A DNA stretch of 54,554 bases from Myxococcota bacterium (lineage in GTDB: Bacteria > Myxococcota_A > Bradymonadia > UBA4248). The DNA lies in contig JAZRWH010000137.1 of assembly GCA_045599585.1 (NCBI GenBank), positions 1 through 54,554 of the forward strand, read 5' to 3'. The notes below the pieces were generated by a model that had not been told where the DNA came from, did not search any database, and saw only the letters and a list, made by a program, of their open reading frames with translations. Within the stretch, counting starts at the first letter, position 1. Every line of letters begins with the position of its first letter. Both the position numbers and the translations under genes were made by a program. This document shows, piece after piece, positions 5,896-54,554 of the stretch.

Positions 5896-5954
5896 AACCA
5901 CAACACTGCGGCGTCCAGCGCCGCCTTCTCACACAGCAGCTGTCGTATGAGGGA

Positions 5955-6055
5955 GGGGGTAGCGGCGTATTAGCGAGCGCCAAGGGCTGCAGACCCGCAA
6001 ACGCAAAAGTAGCCTTTGGCGATCGCTGATAGACGCTCAGGGGGAGACCTCCCCC
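5955..6055 (+). repeat. REP-like palindromic element copy A (GGGGGTAGCGGCGTAT ... ATAGaCGCTCAGGGGGAGACCTCCCCC, 58-bp middle)
   Basis: Read directly from the sequence. Both arms are shared with copies C, F and H. Confidence 0.85.
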
Positions 6056-6144
6056 TCAAAATTCATCTCTATTCTAAAAATCACTCAGAAAGGCGTATCT
6101 CAATCGCCTTTTTTTATATTTTCAGCCAAACAAGGCATCATTTT

Positions 6145-16120: not shown

Positions 16121-16175
16121 GGGGGGAAGTCTCCCCCTGAGCGCCTATCGCCTACGGCGATACAGCGCTACCCCC
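16121..16175 (-). repeat. REP-like element copy B, inverted orientation, short loop
   Basis: GGGGGAAGTCTCCCCCTGAGCGcCTAT-cgcctacggcg-ATACaGCGCTACCCCC. Confidence 0.85.
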
Positions 16176-16396
16176 TCACGGCTCCACACATGCAACAATC
16201 AGCAACCTTTTTGTCATACCCTAAATAAAGCAATAAAAACTAAGAGTAACCCATTTAAGACTCTTGCTGATTGAAAACATATTCATAATGTAGGTATTTA
16301 TGCTACCATATCGAACTGTGTTCGATGCTGCATGTACCTCACACATGCATCTCCCACAAAACACAACCTTTCTAGCTTTTGTCTGGAGAATTAAAT

Positions 16397-20393: not shown

Positions 20394-20624
20394 AGCTTAT
20401 ATGATTAAAACGCGGGTTTCTACAGAAATCCCGCGTTACAACACGATCTGCCCCCACTTGAGACCAAATGAGGATGACTTATTAACTTACATCTATATTG
20501 AATGAATTTCGTTGCAGTCAGTGAGTATTTTTTGTGAGATAGCAATGAAATGATATATAATCAATACGCTCATTGTGAGCGCTTTATTTGTATTGCTTTG
20601 CTACACCTGACTCGGTTTTGAAGC

Positions 20625-21489: not shown

Positions 21490-21690
21490 CGTCGCTTCCG
21501 CTTGTCGTTGAGCATCAGTTACTTTAATTTATCGATATATAATCGCTTCTAAACAAAAAAAGACTTAAGATTACTATAAATTGCACGCGTAGCGAAGGCG
21601 AAGGCAAGCAGCGGGAGCACCGGACGCGCATGTTGAAGACAAAGTCAAGTTCGCGCCCGCCGATGAGCTTTTCATTTGTTGAGAGCGTTT
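21490..21690 (+). mobile_element. MITE-like element copy 3, degenerate (about 80% over 120+ bp, no recognisable TIRs)
   Basis: ...TTATCGATATATAaTCGcTTCTAAaCAaaAAAAGACTTAAGATTACTaTaAATtGC...GCGAAGGCGAAGGCAAGCAGCGGGaGCACCgGACG aligns to copies 1 and 2. Confidence 0.55.
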
Positions 21691-21803: not shown

Positions 21804-22002
21804 AAATTAATACTGTTTTTCACAAAATTAAACCATAATTTTGCAAAAACCATGAACAGTATCGACACATCCCCCAATAAAAATCGCATCATTACATGTT
21901 ATATCTGATGTTTTGTATCAGACTTATTATTACAATTTGCAAAATATTCTAGGGCTTTATTTGCGAATTTTACCTAACAAACCCTAGTGGAGTTTGATCG
22001 AA

Positions 22003-23480
22003 TGGAAACACTTTATTTTGACTGTCAAATGGGAGCAGCTGGCGACATGATCACAGCAGCACTTTTGGATCTCTTTGATAACCCCGAAGCTGTGATCTGC
22101 GAGCTAAATCAAATTGGCCTGCCAGGTGTCGAATTCAGTCACTCCAAAGTCGAAAAATCCGGTATTTCGGGCATGCAAGTAACCATTAAGGTCAATGGCA
22201 TCGAAGAAATCTGCGAAGATGTCAAAGCACATTATGAGCATCATGCCCACGCGCACCACCATTGCCACGCGCACAACGAACACGAACATTGCCATGAACA
22301 TGAGCATTGCCACGAACACGAACATTGCCACGTACATGGGCATTGTCACGAACATGAGCATTGCCACGAACATCAGCATTGCCACGAACATGGGCATTGT
22401 CACGAACATGAGCATTGTCACGAACATGAGCATTGCCACGAACATGAACATTGCCACGAACATCAGCATTGCCACGAACATGGGCATTGTCACGAACATG
22501 GGCATTGTCACGAACATGGGCATTCACATGAACATCACCACGCTACGATGAACGAAATCTATGCAATCGTTGATGCACTCAATATCGACGATTCTGTGAA
22601 AGCAAATGTACGTGCTGTTTATGAAATCATCGCAGAAGCCGAGAGCCACGCTCATGGTGTTCCTGTCACAGAAGTACATTTTCACGAAGTCGGAACGATG
22701 GATGCGATTGCCGATATTACGGCCGTTTGTTTATTAATTCACAAGCTTAACCCCAAACAGATATTGTGTTCGCCGATTCATGTCGGAAGTGGCCATGTTC
22801 ACTGCGCACACGGCATTCTTCCGGTGCCAGCGCCTGCTACGGCCTTCATTTTACGTGGCATTCCTGCGTACGGCGGAGAGGTCAATGGCGAATTGTGTAC
22901 ACCGACGGGAGCGGCAATTGCTAAACATTTTGCAAACAAATTCTGCTACATGCCCATGATGAACACCAAACGCGTAGGCTACGGCATGGGCAAAAAGACT
23001 TTTGAACGTCCTAATTGTGTACGCGCATTTTTAGGAAATACAGAAGATAATTCTGAAATCATCTGCGAGTTAAGCTGTAATCTTGATGATATGTCAGCAG
23101 AAGCGATGGGATTTGCGCAAGAGCGTCTTATGGAAGAAGGGGCTTTGGATGTATTTTCCACAGCAATTGTTATGAAAAAATCGAGACCCGGCTATATGCT
23201 GACGATTCTTTGTAACACGAGTGATCGAGAACACATCCTCAAAACCATCTTTGCGCATACCACGACGATCGGCGTTCGAGAAAAACTATGCCAACGATAT
23301 GTTTTAGCACGAGAGATACAAACGGTTTCGCTGCCGGAAGGGGAGGTTCGGATTAAAAGATCAACGGGGTACGGCGTTGAACGATCTAAAGCGGAATATG
23401 AAGATTTAGCTCGTATTGCAAAAGAGCGAGGCGTTTCGCTGAAAAGTATCGAAGAAGAAGTCATGAAAAAGAGATCGTAA
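22003..23480 (+). CDS. larC: LarC nickel insertion protein (DUF111 family) with expanded His/Cys-rich repeat
   Basis: METLYFDCQMGAAGDMITAALLDLF matches the LarC N-terminus; the track ORF starts at GTG 21987. There is an internal (HEHEHC)n metal-binding repeat. The C-terminal CTP-binding LarC2-like portion is present. Confidence 0.85.
22255..22545 (+). repeat. about 15 tandem 18-bp units (CACGAACATGAGCATTGC and variants) encoding (HEHEHC)n inside larC
   Basis: Period-18 direct repeats are visible. Translation is HCHEHEHCHEHEHC... The antisense ORFs at 22104..22523 and 22222..22527 are artefacts of this repeat. Confidence 0.9.
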
Positions 23481-23523: not shown

Positions 23524-23684
23524 TAAGCTTCGACAACAGATCTTGATCGCTCTAACGCAAGACCACAAAGCAATCCTGACAATAACGAATCAATAGCAGT
23601 TGGGAGAATGCGTTGAGCAGCTAAGTGATACTTATATAATTAAAACCAAGACTCAACATAATATATAAGTATTGACTCAAACGA

Positions 23685-23787
23685 GGGGGTAGCGGCGTAT
23701 CATCATAGCCCAAGACAAAAGATTCAATGCAGTCATACACCACAACCTTGGGCGAAGATGATAGCCGCTCAGGGGGAGACCTCCCCC
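23685..23787 (+). repeat. REP-like element copy C (62-bp middle)
   Basis: GGGGGTAGCGGCGTAT...ATAGCCGCTCAGGGGGAGACCTCCCCCC. Confidence 0.85.
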
Positions 23788-23800
23788 CAAAAGGCGCATA

Positions 23801-24160
23801 TTAAGAAAGCTGACTCACCTCAGAAGGCGTTGTTTGAGCAGAGTCTTCTTTGAGATCCAAAAGGACTTTTTTGACTGCCCCACGCGGATCTTTGACAAGA
23901 AGTCGAACGGTCCAAATGACGAGCGCGAGTGCAACGACGCTGAGTCCCAAGAAAGCGTCATTAAGCATTTCGGCGGGGGCGGGTTGGAAGTATTCGGCAC
24001 CAGCTTCGATGTATTCGAAAACGGCATCGACAAACCACATGATGGAAGCACCCCAAAATAGAAAACAAAGCGTCGACAAACACCAGTTATCTTCAGGAGC
24101 TTTAGCATACCATTTAATGGTAGCAATGACGGCTGCAAACACGGTAATGAGTAACGTCAT
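23801..24160 (-). CDS. small membrane protein (2-3 TM), unknown function, paralog of adjacent gene
   Basis: AAGGA SD. Hydrophobic segments present. The C-terminal AEMLNDAFLGLSVVALALVIWTVRLLVKDP aligns with AEMFHEMSTVGVTMLLVCLAVWAVMLLVARSV of the upstream gene. Confidence 0.6.
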   Translation of the reverse strand: MTLLITVFAAVIATIKWYAKAPEDNWCLSTLCFLFWGASIMWFVDAVFEYIEAGAEYFQPAPAEMLNDAFLGLSVVALALVIWTVRLLVKDPRGAVKKVLLDLKEDSAQTTPSEVSQLS

Positions 24161-27897: not shown

Positions 27898-27952
27898 GCA
27901 ACATTATTTATAGTATTCTGTAATCAACTTTATTTTTGATAATTTTATAGAA

Positions 27953-28005
27953 GGGGAAGGCCTTCCCCTGAGCAGCTATTGGCAAGCCAATACGCTGCTA
28001 CCCCT
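27953..28005 (-). repeat. REP-like element copy D, diverged (GGGGAAGGCCTTCCCC head; AGCaGCTATTGGCaaGCCAATACGCtGCT core)
   Basis: The architecture is the same but with base substitutions. The core equals the core-only hairpin consensus. Confidence 0.7.
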
Positions 28006-28086
28006 TCTGGCCGCAGCGCCTTAATATAGTTTATCAAAGATTCCCTTATCTAATTCCATTGCGGATAATTACAAAAAAGGTACGAA

Positions 28087-30119: not shown

Positions 30120-31712
30120 TTACTTGACGACACCAACTTTAGGTGTAACGGGGGCAGAAGGCGTAGTAGCAGAAGCTGTAGTAGCAGCTTTTTCTTTGCC
30201 GAGGCCAGCAGGCATTTCGACACCGATCATGTCATAGACGTCTTTCATCGGAGGAATGGCTTTCATCATAGAGTTAAGAAAGTTAGCCGTGTTGGAAGTA
30301 CCTTCCTGGCCACCCATAGAATCCCAAACCGTAACTTTGTCGATCTTGATATTTTTGATTGCTTCGACTTGCGTTTTGAGGAGGTCTTCAACTTTGTCAG
30401 CCATCATAAGACGAACAGCTGCATCTGCATTACCACCGGCGGAACGAACGAGCATGGAGTAAGCTTCAGCACGTTTAGCGAGCTGTTGTTTGATACCTTC
30501 AGCTTCGGATTCCATCTTCATGAGGATGGCGTCAGCCTGACCTTTGGCTTTGCGGCGAAGTGCTTCAGCTTCTGCCTCAGCAGCAATTTCGAGACGCTGA
30601 CGTTCGATTTCAGCTTTAACGATAACGTCAGCCTGGAGAGAAGCTTTTGCACGAGAAGCACGAGCAGCTTCAGCTTTTTCTTCAGCAGCGTAGGCTTCAG
30701 CCAAAGCGCGAGCGTTTTGAACTTTTTCAGCGGCAACGGCGCGAGCCTGAGCTTCAGCTTCGACTTCGAGACGTTTAGCTTCGGAGACTGCGATTTGGGC
30801 TTTCGCAGCGTTTTCAGCAGCGAGTGCCTGAGCGTTCATTTCTGCGATCTTGGTACGCTGAACCATTTCAGCCTGTTTTTCAGCAGAGAGAGCACGAGCG
30901 TTGTTTTCTGCGATCTTAGTACGCTGAGCCGTTTCAGCTTCTTTTTCAGCGGTAAGAGCACGTGTAATCTGAGCAGCGACACCTTCGCGCTGTTCAGCGT
31001 CTTTTGCGGCGATAGCAATCGCTTCAGCAGCGCGCTGGTTCTTTTCACCGGTGTTACCTTGGCACTCACGTTCGGCAACGGTAACTTTCGCATCGTTGAT
31101 AGCTTTAGCGGCTGCTTCTTTACCGAGAGATTCGATATAGCCAGATTCGTCGGTGATATCCGTCAAGTTGGCGTTGATCAGCTTAAGACCGATCTTCTGA
31201 AGTTCGCCTTCGACGTTCTGAGAAACTTTTGTCATGAACTCATCACGTTTACTGTTGAGCTCTTCAATGTCCATCTGGGCGATGATCAGACGAAGCTGAC
31301 CATAAATGATTTCTTTACCGAGGTTTTCGATAGCGCGAAGCGGCTGTCCAAGAAGGCGTTCTGCTGCGTTCTGCATAACGCCGTCGTCTGTAGAAATTGC
31401 GACCGTAAACGTTGCAGGAACGTTAACACGGATGTTCTGACGAGAAAGTGCATTACGAAGGTCGATGGTAATCGGAAGCGGCGTAAGATCGAGGTAATTA
31501 ACTTCCTGAATGATAGGCCAAATAAATTTACCACCACCGTGAATACAAATGGATGAACGAGATTCGCCGTTTTCATCTTTGCCGACCTTACCGGAAACGA
31601 CCATAACTTTGTCGGACGGACAACGTTTGTAACGCTTCGAAATCGATACAATCAGAATGACGAAGGCTAGAATTGACACACCTACGATTGCAGCCAAAAC
31701 AGACAAACTCAT
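30120..31712 (-). CDS. flotillin / SPFH (band-7) family protein with long coiled-coil
   Basis: An N-terminal TM segment is followed by an SPFH domain. The EA-rich heptad region contains the repeated AEKQAEMVQRTKIAE unit. This is the classic YqiK/FloT-like layout next to NfeD. Confidence 0.85.
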   Translation of the reverse strand: MSLSVLAAIVGVSILAFVILIVSISKRYKRCPSDKVMVVSGKVGKDENGESRSSICIHGGGKFIWPIIQEVNYLDLTPLPITIDLRNALSRQNIRVNVPATFTVAISTDDGVMQNAAERLLGQPLRAIENLGKEIIYGQLRLIIAQMDIEELNSKRDEFMTKVSQNVEGELQKIGLKLINANLTDITDESGYIESLGKEAAAKAINDAKVTVAERECQGNTGEKNQRAAEAIAIAAKDAEQREGVAAQITRALTAEKEAETAQRTKIAENNARALSAEKQAEMVQRTKIAEMNAQALAAENAAKAQIAVSEAKRLEVEAEAQARAVAAEKVQNARALAEAYAAEEKAEAARASRAKASLQADVIVKAEIERQRLEIAAEAEAEALRRKAKGQADAILMKMESEAEGIKQQLAKRAEAYSMLVRSAGGNADAAVRLMMADKVEDLLKTQVEAIKNIKIDKVTVWDSMGGQEGTSNTANFLNSMMKAIPPMKDVYDMIGVEMPAGLGKEKAATTASATTPSAPVTPKVGVVK

Positions 31713-31924: not shown

Positions 31925-31978
31925 GGGGGAAGTCTCCCCCTGAGCGGCTATTTGCAAAGCAAATACGCCGCTACCCCC
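31925..31978 (-). repeat. REP-like element copy E, between nfeD-like and flotillin genes
   Basis: GGGGGAAGTCTCCCCCTGAGCGGCTATTTGCaaaGCAAATACGCCGCTACCCCC. Identical to copy G. Confidence 0.9.
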
Positions 31979-32107
31979 TCTAGCCTGCGGCGCATCCAGT
32001 TATGAACAACCCAAACAACGATCTTATTCATCCAGCCTGACCCACAAGACGCATGAACAAACCCTTACGAAGCCTTCGAATGAAACGTAATATTTCAGCC
32101 GAATCAC

Positions 32108-32764: not shown

Positions 32765-32901
32765 TCAGACCTCCTTCTCATTGTCCTTGAAAGATCAAAT
32801 TTGAGTCTAGCAAACATCCCCTTTTGTGACAAGCGTTTCCAACGTCACCCAAATGCGCACGAAGCGTCCCCTGTACCCTTGTATTACAATTAAACTTGAG
32901 A

Positions 32902-33021
32902 GGGGGTAGCGGCGTATCAACTTCGCGATACAAACGCTTGCAATATGAATTATGATTGGCAAATCTTTACAATCATTCAACCCACGCGAAGGTGATAGCC
33001 GCTCAGGGGGAGACCTCCCCC
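32902..33021 (+). repeat. REP-like element copy F (about 80-bp middle)
   Basis: GGGGGTAGCGGCGTAT ... ATAGCCGCTCAGGGGGAGACCTCCCCC. Confidence 0.85.
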
Positions 33022-33175
33022 ACAAAATTCCTCCCAATCCACCTTTCGTAGCTCCCTTTTGGAGGGTTATCATTGACCGAATGATAATTCTAGGCATAGA
33101 ATAGGTAGATTTTGGGGTGATTTTACAAAATTTCACACCTACATTTTACTACATTTTATATCTGCCTTCACCTCT

Positions 33176-34690: not shown

Positions 34691-35650
34691 ATGCGATCCA
34701 ATCTTGCTTCTTTTATGCGACGCGGCTCTGCAGGCGCTTTCATTCTCGGCTTTATCGCTGCGCTTGCAGCCATTACGATGCTCGTGCTCTTCGTTTTGGG
34801 CGATGAAAGCGATACAGATGACGACGATGCTTGGTACGAGTCTGACGAAGACTATACAGATGACGACGAGATTTGGGATACGTGGAAAATCGATGATCAA
34901 AAACGTTCCAAAGTTTCCAAAAAACACGGTGCTTATGGTGATGGCGTGTTTAAAAGCGAAGCCGAATTGCGTGCTTTTGTGAATAAAACAGCGTCTAACA
35001 CCGATGAAGTTTGGACAGAACTCTTTGCCGAATACAAAAAACCATATCGAAAACCTAAATTTAAGCTTTTTGAAGACTCTGTTGCGACAGCATGCGGTGA
35101 TGCCGACACGGACGACGGCCCTTTCTACTGTTCCGAAGATGAAACGATCTATCTCGATCTAAACTTTATGGCGAATATGAGCGACCAAATCGGAACCAGC
35201 GGCGAATTTGCAATCGCCTACGTCATCGCCCACGAATACGGACACCATATTCAAAACCTCGTCGGCGACCTGAACAAATATAGTAAAAGAGAAGAAAAGC
35301 TGCGCGAACAGGGAAAAGAAAAAAAGGCAAATCTCGTTTCGGTTCAAACGGAACTTCAGGCTGATTTCTATGCCGGCGTATGGGCAAGTCGCTATGACGA
35401 AAAGCACGATCTGATCACCGAAGATGACATTGTGGATGCACTTAATGCAGCTGATGCCGTTGGCGATGACGCGCTCGGTGAAGACAGACGCGAAAATTTC
35501 GGACATGGTTCCTCCGAAATGCGCATGAAATGGCTAATCCGAGGCATGGTCACGGGCGATGTTCAGTACGGGAATACTTACGATTTTAAATCCCTCAAGA
35601 AACTCGAAGATGTTGATACTATGCTCGACGATGATGACGATGCCAAATAA
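34691..35650 (+). CDS. YpfJ-like putative neutral zinc metallopeptidase (Zn_peptidase_2)
   Basis: Single N-terminal TM segment, then an acidic D/E-rich tract. HEYGHH is the zinc motif and ELQADFYAG is conserved in YpfJ. Confidence 0.75.
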   Translation: MRSNLASFMRRGSAGAFILGFIAALAAITMLVLFVLGDESDTDDDDAWYESDEDYTDDDEIWDTWKIDDQKRSKVSKKHGAYGDGVFKSEAELRAFVNKTASNTDEVWTELFAEYKKPYRKPKFKLFEDSVATACGDADTDDGPFYCSEDETIYLDLNFMANMSDQIGTSGEFAIAYVIAHEYGHHIQNLVGDLNKYSKREEKLREQGKEKKANLVSVQTELQADFYAGVWASRYDEKHDLITEDDIVDALNAADAVGDDALGEDRRENFGHGSSEMRMKWLIRGMVTGDVQYGNTYDFKSLKKLEDVDTMLDDDDDAK

Positions 35651-35687
35651 CGTAATGCATCGCGATCTTATATAAATTGTTTTTTTG

Positions 35688-35752
35688 CGTTGGCTTTTAG
35701 GCGCACAGCGCCTAAATACGCCAACGCGCGCGGCTATTACATACGCCGCGCA
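35688..35752. repeat. two GC-rich hairpins of the same core family after ypfJ-like gene
   Basis: GCGTTGGCttttAGGCGCacagGCGCCTaaatacGCCAACGC and GCGCGGCTATtacATACGCCGCGC. Confidence 0.65.
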
Positions 35753-35795
35753 GTATTTTATATGTATTGCTTGAACGCTATTTAAAAATGTTTAC

Positions 35796-36004
35796 CACTG
35801 CTGTCCTACGAAGTTTTCATAGAATACTCTGATAACTCTACAGTTGCTTTGTTTTGTCTATATATAGTCGTTTTTAAGCATGAAAAAGACTTAAGATTAC
35901 GGTTAAATCGCCTGCGGCGCGAAGCCGAAGGCAAGCAGCGGGCGCACCAGACGAGCGGGCGCATTTCGTTACAGTTAATGAGAATATATTGTGGGACAGC
36001 AGTG
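35796..36004 (+). mobile_element. MITE-like element copy 1, complete: 14-bp TIRs CACTGCTGTCCtAC / GTgGGACAGCAGTG, flanked by 8-bp direct repeat AATGTTTA
   Basis: The TIRs are at 35796-35809 and 35991-36004. Direct repeats AATGTTTA lie at 35787-35794 and 36005-36012. There is no credible ORF; 35849..36127 is treated as spurious. Confidence 0.75.
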
Positions 36005-36074
36005 AATGTTTATGAAGTCTTTCAAGCAAACGCAGCAGCTTCCGTAGATCCATCGAATAGCCCAAGTTTTCCGT

Positions 36075-36635
36075 TTAAGGCTTTTTTAAACGCCAACCAT
36101 GGTAGCACTGCTCATCCATTTCTATAAGTTTATACTCGTCTTTGAGCTTAACGAGCGCTGTACGAACGCTCCTTACCGAAATACCAAGCTTATCAACGAT
36201 CTGTCGACGCTGAATACACGGATTTTCAGAGATCACAGCTAGCACCTCGTTGAGCGTGTCAAGAAACTGCTGTGAATATGCTGCGTGGCAATTGTCACGC
36301 GTTAAGTAGGGCTTCGTTTCTTGTAAAGCTGTAAAATTTAATAAATGCTCTAGCTCAGCAGCTTCTGAATTTGTTTTTAAGTCGTCCACTTTAGCAACCG
36401 CTTGCCCACCCGTTCGTTGAGATCCTCCCTCTGGTTCGGCAACAATACAAAAAGAACGCACCGCTGCATCGTGCATTTCCATCATAAAATCATCAGATTT
36501 TTTTAATATGGCAAATTTAAGATCTTCAATCGATAATTCCCCCGTTTTAAGCGCGTAAAGCATTAGCCGAATGCCATACACAACTTCTCGTTCAACAGCC
36601 AGACTAATTGCTCTCCATTCTTCGTGTGTAAGCAT
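36075..36635 (-). CDS. hypothetical protein with C-terminal winged-helix DNA-binding domain
   Basis: The C-terminal IQRRQIVDKLGISVRSVRTALVKLKDEYKLIE looks wHTH-like. I recognise no other family. Confidence 0.5.
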   Translation of the reverse strand: MLTHEEWRAISLAVEREVVYGIRLMLYALKTGELSIEDLKFAILKKSDDFMMEMHDAAVRSFCIVAEPEGGSQRTGGQAVAKVDDLKTNSEAAELEHLLNFTALQETKPYLTRDNCHAAYSQQFLDTLNEVLAVISENPCIQRRQIVDKLGISVRSVRTALVKLKDEYKLIEMDEQCYHGWRLKKP

Positions 36636-41253: not shown

Positions 41254-41407
41254 TTTATTCTCTCCAAAAGATTTTAATGTGCACATAATGTGACGCATTG
41301 AATGAACGATTGCAGCCTATAGTGTTTAAACCAAAAATTCAACAAATTCGATGCGTTTGATGTTTAATCTAGGAATAGCTCAACTAGGGGCCCGCGTGCC
41401 GAAGGCG

Positions 41408-41574
41408 CACCCGCTCGTCTGGTGCGCCCGCTGCTTGCATTCGGCTTCGCGACGCAGGCGATTTAACAGTAATCTTAAGTCTTTTTCATGCTTAGAAACG
41501 ACTATATATCGATAAAACAAAGCTACTGTAGAGTTATCAGAGTATTCTATGAAAACTCCGTGGGACAGCAGTGA
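41408..41574 (-). mobile_element. MITE-like element copy 2, inverted orientation, about 95% identical over about 165 bp, one TIR present (41560-41573), other end replaced or truncated
   Basis: The reverse complement aligns with copy 1 from the TIR through GCAAGCAGCGGGCGCACCAGACGAGCGGG. Confidence 0.7.
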
Positions 41575-42145: not shown

Positions 42146-42450
42146 GCTCACACCTCTTTGTGGTCAACGATTCAGCGCCAAATGTCGGTCGCCATTCATT
42201 CCATAACACGATTGAATTCAAATTGTATATTAATATATAAAAATAGTTTAAGGCAGTGCATGGCCGTCTCAAACATATTTTCATTAACTTCAACGAAATG
42301 CGCTCGTTACAGAATTTTATACTTTTCTAATTCTCATTCTGTCCTGCGGACGCCCCTTTGGAATTTCCGCGCTTGCAGAGAGCTCACGTTGTTCAAATAT
42401 GAATTTATGTAGGACTGCGGTACTGTAGAAAGCGACATCACAACAAGAGA

Positions 42451-52920: not shown

Positions 52921-52974
52921 GGGGGAAGTCTCCCCCTGAGCGGCTATTTGCAAAGCAAATACGCCGCTACCCCC
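52921..52974 (-). repeat. REP-like element copy G (identical to E)
   Basis: A 54-bp sequence shared with 31925..31978. Confidence 0.9.
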
Positions 52975-52991
52975 TCAAGCAATCAAATTAA

Positions 52992-54185: not shown

Positions 54186-54387
54186 TCACAACAAAAACGG
54201 AACTTACCCAGAATAAACTGTTTATTGAGGGCATCGTTTCGAAAACTCAGCTTAGTCTAACATACACAAGCTTTCTGTGCTACGTTATACGCCAATTGAT
54301 GAGCAGAGAGTTTTCGAGGATTTATTCTAAAGATTTACAGTGACGCGAACGTCCTTCAGACGACGCTTGTTGACGCCTACGGCAAGA

Positions 54388-54436
54388 GGGGGTAGCGGCG
54401 TATTTGCTTTGCAAATAGCCGCTCAGGGGGAGACGG
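54388..54436 (+). repeat. REP-like element copy H, truncated at the 3' G5/C5 hairpin where the IS30 end begins
   Basis: GGGGGTAGCGGCGTATTTGCtttGCAAATAGCCGCTCAGGGGGAGAC is followed by GGAAAATTGTCA (IS terminus) instead of (C/T)TCCCCC. Confidence 0.7.
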
Positions 54437-54443
54437 AAAATTG

Positions 54444-54554
54444 TCAATCCAAATGCATATTTGAGTAAACCATTTCCGGTGTCTTCCAACCAAGTACTTT
54501 TCGAGGTCTCTGATTAATTTCATTACAGACACGTTTGATATAGCTGTCAGAGAC
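54444..54554 (-). mobile_element. IS30-family transposase 3' end (partial, runs off window)
   Basis: The reverse complement translates to VSDSYIKRVCNEINQRPRKVLGWKTPEMVYSNMHLD*. N-R-P-R-K-x-L-G-[FWY]-K-T-P-x-E-V is the conserved IS30 transposase C-terminal signature. Confidence 0.7.

Follow-up and report, generated by a model that had tools for sequence, protein, structure and literature searches.

A 209-bp intergenic element with inverted ends and flanking direct repeats, probably a lineage-specific MITE of an uncultured gut bacterium

MITEs are non-autonomous DNA transposons without a gene of their own. The ERIC and BIME repeats of enterobacteria are intergenic imperfect palindromes of 100-200 nt, which have mosaic modular copies, an orientation bias and stem-loops at the RNA level; as a rule, no clear target duplication accompanies them. 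BIMEs are assemblies of 35-40-nt GC-rich REP units, while REPINs are pairs of short REP hairpins, ~70-110 nt in size and likewise free of a target duplication. Prokaryotic MITEs are shorter than 500 bp, carry TIRs of ~4-30 bp and are bordered by direct repeats when young; they occupy AT-rich intergenic targets, form stable stem-loops in transcripts and leave many partial copies devoid of TIRs or direct repeats (PMC10969869). Among them, the Correia elements of Neisseria measure ~100-200 bp, and QMITE2 of Coxiella has 7-9-bp direct repeats and 23-29-bp TIRs (PMC10969869).

Here, we followed up a sequence-only reading of one bacterial contig, which had proposed a MITE-like element, designated element A in the following. 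The window, i.e. the whole stretch of DNA that was analysed, is one entire contig of 54,554 bp. Measured against the features of prokaryotic MITEs, element A has a length of 209 bp (below 500), no transposase gene, 14-bp TIRs (within 4-30), a flanking direct repeat, an AT-rich intergenic site and a stable predicted stem-loop. At the family level, two left ends, three tails with a (decayed) right end, three bodies and one intact copy are present in the 54.5 kb.

Location, ends and interior of element A

The contig is bacterial chromosome and carries uvrB, a gene for a prc-like peptidase of the MXAN_5808 family, larB and larC, along with genes for MatE and RND efflux systems and aminopeptidase P, mgsA and a tRNA-Gly gene. 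A phage origin of element A was rejected because the contig is a piece of bacterial chromosome with housekeeping genes. No transposase, integrase or reverse transcriptase was found in the window. The tRNA-Gly(GCC) gene is located at the very start of the contig (10-84, - strand), and neither an integrase nor an att-like repeat was seen beside it. Element A resides in a spacer of 424 bp between a Zn-peptidase gene (34691-35650, +) and a convergent winged-helix gene (36075-36635, -), which encodes a protein of 186 aa; REP-like hairpins (35677-35745) precede the element at a short distance. The features of element A and of its insertion site are as follows.

35796..36004 (+): element A, full-length (head, body and tail), 209 bp, the sole intact copy in the window
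35787..35794: left flanking direct repeat AATGTTTA, a putative target-site duplication, with the spacer base C35795 before the inverted end
35796..35809 (+): left terminal inverted repeat CACTGCTGTCCTAC; family consensus CACTGCTGTCCCAC
35991..36004 (+): right terminal inverted repeat GTGGGACAGCAGTG
36005..36012: right flanking direct repeat AATGTTTA, which abuts the inverted end directly
35796-35845 (+): head module, including the left end
35812..35837 (+) in A and 41557-41532 (-) in copy B2: subterminal 26-bp imperfect palindrome AGTTTTCATAGAATACTCTGATAACT in the head, identical in both copies
35841..35962 (+): body module, including the GC-rich right part; 3 copies by nhmmer, E = 1e-42 to 7e-36
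35956..36004 (+): tail module, composed of a hairpin, an A/T-rich stretch and the right inverted end; 3 copies, E = 2.5e-15 to 2.4e-13
35964-35983 (+): tail hairpin UUUCGUUA-CAGU-UAAUGAGA
35767-35775 and 36021-36029: 9-bp perfect inverted repeat around the insertion, TTGCTTGAA and TTCAAGCAA, within an inverted match of 35767-35818 with 35982-36029

The sequence-only reading had described a 209-bp element with 14-bp inverted ends and identical octamers on both sides, and all of these are present at the positions it gave. The arms are complementary at 13 of 14 positions; the single mismatch, T35807 against G35993, would correspond to a G-U pair at the RNA level. The consensus CACTGCTGTCCCAC is read both at the right end of A and at the left end of B2, a related copy described below. 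T35807 is thus a derived C-to-T transition, and, because these two ends agree, the ancestral inverted repeat was a perfect one (14/14). The two octamers match at 8 of 8 positions, though the left one is offset by 1 nt from the inverted end. Equally good bounds are provided by a 211-bp element (35795-36005) with a 7-bp duplication, ATGTTTA, that touches both ends. Judged from the letters, the length of the duplication is ambiguous, 7 or 8 bp, so that the proposal to name the responsible IS family from an 8-bp duplication had to be dropped.

The interior is AT-rich at the left (32% GC) and GC-rich at the right (57% GC), as had been noted, and the flanks of the element have 37% GC. The right part had also been credited with a hairpin-prone segment; the stretch in question (35930-35961) turned out to be mainly a direct repeat, two units of GCGGGCGC. 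A clearer hairpin, GCCUGCGGC-GCGAA-GCCGAAGGC, is predicted by RNA folding just upstream of it. Three overlapping ORFs of 52-92 aa are located inside element A, none of which has a Pfam match, and family copies are separated by 1-nt indels. Element A is thus without coding capacity, in agreement with the earlier statement that no plausible coding capacity exists.

In a profile search, the head matched its own reverse complement in A as well as in B2. This symmetry is also visible in the 26-bp dyad AGTTTTCATAGAATACTCTGATAACT just inside the left end, which is predicted to fold into a hairpin and is a possible protein-binding site. The empty site, as reconstructed from the flanks, folds as a hairpin of -12.2 kcal/mol between the convergent genes. 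This observation was made post hoc, and insertion of element A into a hairpin loop is a possible reading of it.

Related copies in the contig and distribution of the family

Copies of the family were called by self-comparison of the window, pattern matching and nhmmer profile searches, which together detected the head module twice and the body and tail modules three times each. Further copies were not returned by profile searches of the window. In addition to element A, the modules are distributed over the following copies.

41407..41573 (-): copy B2, head and body without tail, 94% identical to A 35796-35962 over 167 nt
42306-42263 (-): copy B1, tail, with a possible full extent of 42259..42422; 82% identical to A, interior unrelated
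21516..21629 (+): copy C2, confined to the body, 80% identical, located between larB and larC
20506..20549 (+): copy C1, consisting of the tail alone, 80% identical, 75 nt upstream of larB

The body contains the pattern AAGACTTAAGATTAC-N29-30-GCAAGCAGCGGG, for which three matches were obtained versus zero expected. Copy B2 starts 2 nt past the stop codon of a UPF0227 gene, deviates from A by 10 differences (5 transitions and 5 transversions) and diverges abruptly from it after the body. From base 1 of the left inverted end onwards, and no earlier, A and B2 are similar. Outside this end both are unrelated, reading TTTAAAAATGTTTAC in A and GATTATCGATTAAGT in B2, and the immediate left flank of B2, GATTAAGT, is unlike the left octamer of A, which places the octamer outside the family. 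The sharp left boundary argues for a discrete unit and against a segmental duplication. At the other side, A and C1 cease to be similar within a few bases of the right end, and both boundaries are as expected for a discrete mobile unit. The right end of C1, GTGAGATAGCAATG, is three transitions away from the consensus, and in both C1 and B1 this end is decayed yet recognisable. B1 possesses a possible degenerate left end, TACCGCAGTCCTAC, with a marginal match of 10/14 (estimated p ~0.07), and its ends pair only weakly in RNA folding (z = -1.1); a full-length but old copy of ~164 bp is a possible reading of B1.

Counting of copies, which the sequence-only reading had suggested as a check, hence yielded partial and degenerate relatives in the contig. 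A second intact copy, with both ends and the duplication, was not among them, all others being truncated or degenerate. Nor did the longer copy it had envisaged, with a transposase between the same TIRs, appear: an autonomous relative with the same ends was found neither in the window nor in the GTDB representative, metagenome, viral, plasmid and phage collections that were scanned. All copies are intergenic, and all five are co-oriented with their neighbouring genes, although these represent only ~3 independent loci. The breakpoints of B2 (its end) and of B1 and C1 (their start) cluster at the body/tail junction, at 35956-35963 of element A, which looks more modular than random decay. A and B2 form inverted 167-nt repeats, 94% identical and 5.4 kb apart, that bracket the genes wHTH-MatE-AmpP-mgsA. 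In one relative (L034), mgsA follows AmpP on the same strand, and it is inverted in the contig studied here, from which we conclude that rearrangements occur near the A/B2 repeats.

The closest relatives are MAGs and contigs labelled 'Proteobacteria bacterium' from pig-gut and other ENA, JGI and Logan metagenomes, the nearest of which exhibit 70-86% nucleotide identity in genes and little synteny. Sensitive blastn searches for head, body and tail modules in ~107 kb of non-redundant DNA of these relatives (207 kb in total) gave no match. Loci reached via the homologues of the Zn-peptidase, AmpP and UvrB were not syntenic at the site of element A, and no empty site was found among them. The DNA searched with blastn includes the larB-larC genes of another relative (L043), which are orthologous to those of the contig, their spacer measuring 252 nt versus 609 nt in the latter; the larB-larC spacers of the two are unalignable, and that of the relative contains different REP-like hairpins and none of the family modules. 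The conserved 18-mer AAAAAGACTTAAGATTAC had 30 unrelated single matches among GTDB representative genomes, which is about chance level. In JGI metagenomes, the strict body pattern had 0 matches, and the tail-plus-end pattern had 3, all of them in coding DNA and all chance. Scans of viral contigs, plasmids and phages for the family found nothing, and a literature search with the terminal sequence returned PCR primers only. As the modules are absent from the searched DNA of the relatives and from the scanned databases, the family is lineage-specific rather than a conserved regulator of neighbouring genes.

Several further repeats were observed in the contig. Many of its intergenic spacers contain REP-like compound palindromes, which form another family with more members. 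Its layout is GGGGGAAGTCTCCCCC, followed by GAGCGGCTATTTGC-AAA-GCAAATACGCCGCTAC and then CCCCTC, and it is also seen as GGGGGAAGTCTCCCCC... / GCGGCTATT...AATACGCCGC. Copies of this family are located as follows.

16122-16181, 27952-28011, 31925-31984 and 52921-52980 (+): REP-like copies
5953-6072, 23683-23804, 32900-33038 and 54386-54458: REP-like copies, inverted
35677-35745: further REP-like copy

One pair of these, 52928-52976 and 54386-54434, is 100% complementary over 49 nt. Within the coding sequence of larC (21987-23480), an 18-bp unit is repeated ~14 times in frame at 22276-22535 and encodes a His/Cys-rich tract, (HEHEHC)n; LarC, a nickel-insertion protein, comprises 497 aa in the contig versus 434 aa in the relative L043. 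A 66-bp unit is repeated 2.3 times with 83% matches at 30811-30962, in an SPFH/Band-7 gene (30120-31712, -).

RNA-level features and alternative explanations

The sense strand of element A is predicted to fold with -72.9 kcal/mol (z = -5.5), whereby the two ends form a closing stem; the predicted fold of the opposite strand is weaker (z = -3.2). The hairpins predicted in the body of A are broken in B2 and C2 without compensating changes, according to our reading of fold and alignment. The tail hairpin is 95.8% paired over its three copies and includes one position that is A-U, G-C or G-U as well as one invariant G-U pair; with three sequences, pairing and covariation were indistinguishable from shuffles (334/500). 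Uniform orientation together with the G-U pairs in the tail hairpin, at ~3 independent loci, may indicate that the family is under selection as RNA and is not purely parasitic. At the gathering threshold, Rfam detected only the tRNA-Gly in the window. At E <= 5-10, only sub-threshold noise was obtained at the three loci, the best being Termite-flg with 15.9 bits compared to a gathering threshold of 40. Neither a promoter-like site on the sense strand upstream of or inside element A nor an intrinsic terminator was found. Two candidate hybrid promoters are predicted at other copies.

20532-20561 (+): candidate hybrid promoter from C1 towards larB
42272-42245 (-): candidate hybrid promoter from B1 towards the UPF0227 gene

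In these, the right ends of C1 and B1 supply the -35-like hexamers TTGTGA and TTGAGA, and the -10-like hexamers TATAAT and TAAACT are located in the respective flanks at a spacing of 16-18 nt. Counts of promoter-like sites were not above those in shuffles. The right ends of C1 and B1 may therefore be taken as parts of hybrid promoters only as a lead.

Could the inverted ends and the octamers be coincidental, in AT-rich intergenic DNA that contains a duplicated segment? We consider this very improbable, although the ends by themselves do not speak against it. Ten 14-nt inverted repeats with <=1 mismatch and a spacing of 50-400 nt (7 distinct) are present in the window, and 20 dinucleotide shuffles of the window gave a mean of 4.35; as ~4 such repeats are expected per window, the inverted ends of element A alone are not significant. 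The AT-rich octamer AATGTTTA occurs 6 times in the window compared to 2.9 expected, and 8 of 100 shuffles reach >=6. However, a flanking direct repeat of 8/8 was seen only for element A among the 7 distinct pairs, the six others serving as controls with 3-5 of 8. Analytically, we estimate ~2.5e-4 per pair for a flanking match of this kind when offsets of 0-2 nt are allowed, and ~2.5e-3 for inverted ends and 8/8 flanking repeat jointly. Moreover, the 14-mer of the inverted end has a third occurrence at 41560-41573, where it is the precise start of B2. Inverted ends, 8/8 flanks and family boundaries at the ends are jointly very unlikely to arise by chance; the 8/8 flanks, the repeat family in the same contig and the similarity boundaries at the ends confirm that element A is real. 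What had been claimed earlier, a non-autonomous transposable element, is partly supported, by ends, duplication and family boundaries taken together, and not by the TIRs alone, which do no better than chance. The main rival, which we regard as unlikely, assumes an ERIC/BIME-type intergenic repeat, modular in build, whose function lies in RNA and which has spread mainly by recombination or gene conversion. The tail hairpin would act upstream of genes and head plus body downstream, their sense orientation being kept in transcripts, and element A would be a place where two modules abut, so that its ends can pair. Indeed, head plus body and tail are found apart, the breakpoints of B2, B1 and C1 fall within 7 nt (35956-35963), the order tail, gene, (head and) body recurs at two loci, UPF0227 and larB, all five of five copies follow the orientation of the flanking genes, the sense fold beats the antisense fold, and the tail hairpin retains its pairing, including the A-U / G-C / G-U position and the invariant G-U. 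However, this explanation leaves the 8/8 flanking duplication and the boundary exactly at the inverted end unaccounted for. The body hairpins of A are not maintained by compensation in B2 and C2, tail covariation is no better than in shuffles, the orientation argument is based on ~3 independent loci, and a relative carries the corresponding larB-larC operon without the modules, which speaks against conserved regulators. As ERIC-like elements are often classed as MITEs themselves, the ERIC/BIME-type explanation overlaps in part with the MITE reading.

A free-standing gene for a structured sRNA of ~200 nt, with a terminal stem of 14-20 bp and paralogues at other loci, would also account for the strong predicted fold with paired ends, the non-coding nature and the several related copies. 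It is very doubtful, since no Rfam family was matched even at E <= 10, element A has no sense promoter-like site or intrinsic terminator, B2, C2 and C1 lack the closing stem, the internal hairpins are not conserved, and relatives do not share the element; a 6S-like or other known ncRNA was rejected for want of an Rfam match. In retrons, the a1/a2 inverted repeats flank the msr-msd ncRNA, and the reverse transcriptase gene follows directly downstream. A retron was rejected because there is no RT domain in the window and the downstream gene encodes the convergent 186-aa winged-helix protein. The recurrent order of tail, gene and (head plus) body at two loci, the breakpoints clustered at the body/tail junction and the inverted copies A and B2 bracketing 5.4 kb could point to an attC-like recombination site, at which tail-gene-head-body cassettes are joined at the body/tail junction, with element A as an empty closed site. 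This we consider the least probable of all explanations. Integron attC sites have the core sites RYYYAAC ... GTTRRRY and belong to a cassette array with a nearby integrase. RYYYAAC / GTTRRRY core sites are absent here, neither integrase nor recombinase is encoded in the window, and no tail follows B2 or C2, hence no array exists; an integron attC site proper was rejected on these grounds, i.e. the lack of core sites at the ends, of an integrase and of an array. Furthermore, the bracketed genes are housekeeping genes (larB of the conserved larB-larC operon and a UPF0227 esterase), a relative has larB-larC without modules, and the segment from A to B2 is not bordered by a direct repeat at its outer ends. 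The latter finding also led us to reject a composite transposon extending from A to B2. It is improbable, finally, that the family represents a two-part, strand-specific RNA/DNA module that brackets genes, the tail with its hairpin and an outward -35-like hexamer being placed upstream and head plus body downstream, and that recombines at the fixed body/tail junction into shuffled or re-wired cassettes, with A as the closed empty form.

Mobilisation model and comparison with known elements

Taken together, the data make it probable that element A is a young copy of a lineage-specific MITE. Read as such, it is an ordinary kind of genome parasite, whose family is most likely private to one uncultured gut bacterium. 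A 5'-CA start of the ends, as in CACTGCTGTCCCAC, is common among DDE transposons. A DDE-type transposase, whose gene would be located outside this contig in the genome, would bind to both 14-bp inverted ends. The element would then enter an AT-rich intergenic target through cuts staggered by 7-8 bp, and repair of these cuts would create the AATGTTTA duplication. The inverted ends, the flanking duplication, family membership with boundaries at the ends, the AT-rich intergenic site, the lack of coding capacity and the absence from the searched DNA of relatives are shown by the data, whereas the transposase and its IS family, its action in trans, the exact duplication length, any present activity and effects on expression are inferred. 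Kinship with Tc1/IS630, which the CAGTG-like ends had suggested, was rejected because a TA duplication is absent. B2, C2, B1 and C1 would represent older copies, truncated or decayed, and partial copies are usual among bacterial MITE families (PMC10969869). All copies point in the same direction as their neighbouring genes, which makes co-transcription of the element with them probable; its long terminal stem could then affect processing or termination of the mRNA.

If confirmed, the family would be one more lineage-specific MITE family, residing in an uncultured 'Proteobacteria bacterium' lineage of pig and animal guts that is known from MAGs only. Repeats of the MITE type break metagenome assemblies and mark recent transposase activity. 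They can also provide neighbouring genes with promoters or RNA stem-loops, candidates here being larB and the UPF0227 esterase gene. The inverted copies A and B2, 5.4 kb apart, would be substrates for inversions. The practical value of the element is modest, and it opens no new mechanism.

With the RAYT-mobilised REP and REPIN sequences, element A shares its nature as multi-copy intergenic palindromic DNA. It differs from them by its size of 209 bp, its 14-bp ends and its 7-8-bp duplication, and no RAYT gene is present in the window. Element A and the ERIC and BIME repeats all are intergenic palindromes, located inside transcription units or between them, and have modular copies, a preferred orientation and predicted stem-loops in common, whereas a sequence relation does not exist, and the GC-rich REP units of BIMEs contrast with the left half of element A, which has 32% GC. 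Compared to described MITEs, no sequence similarity was detected for element A in plasmid, Rfam, literature and phage searches, and no partner IS was found in the window or the scanned collections, so that the element is not assignable to type I or II. Correia elements duplicate TA, unlike element A with its 7-8 bp, and a single intact copy was found here. With the prokaryotic MITEs Correia of Neisseria, Chunjie of Geobacter and QMITE1/2 of Coxiella, element A has in common a size below 500 bp, TIRs and a target duplication. Further shared traits are the transposase-less state, the AT-rich intergenic site and a strongly folding transcript, which is predicted in the case of element A, as well as the mixture of full-length and partial copies and possible outward promoter elements in the ends.
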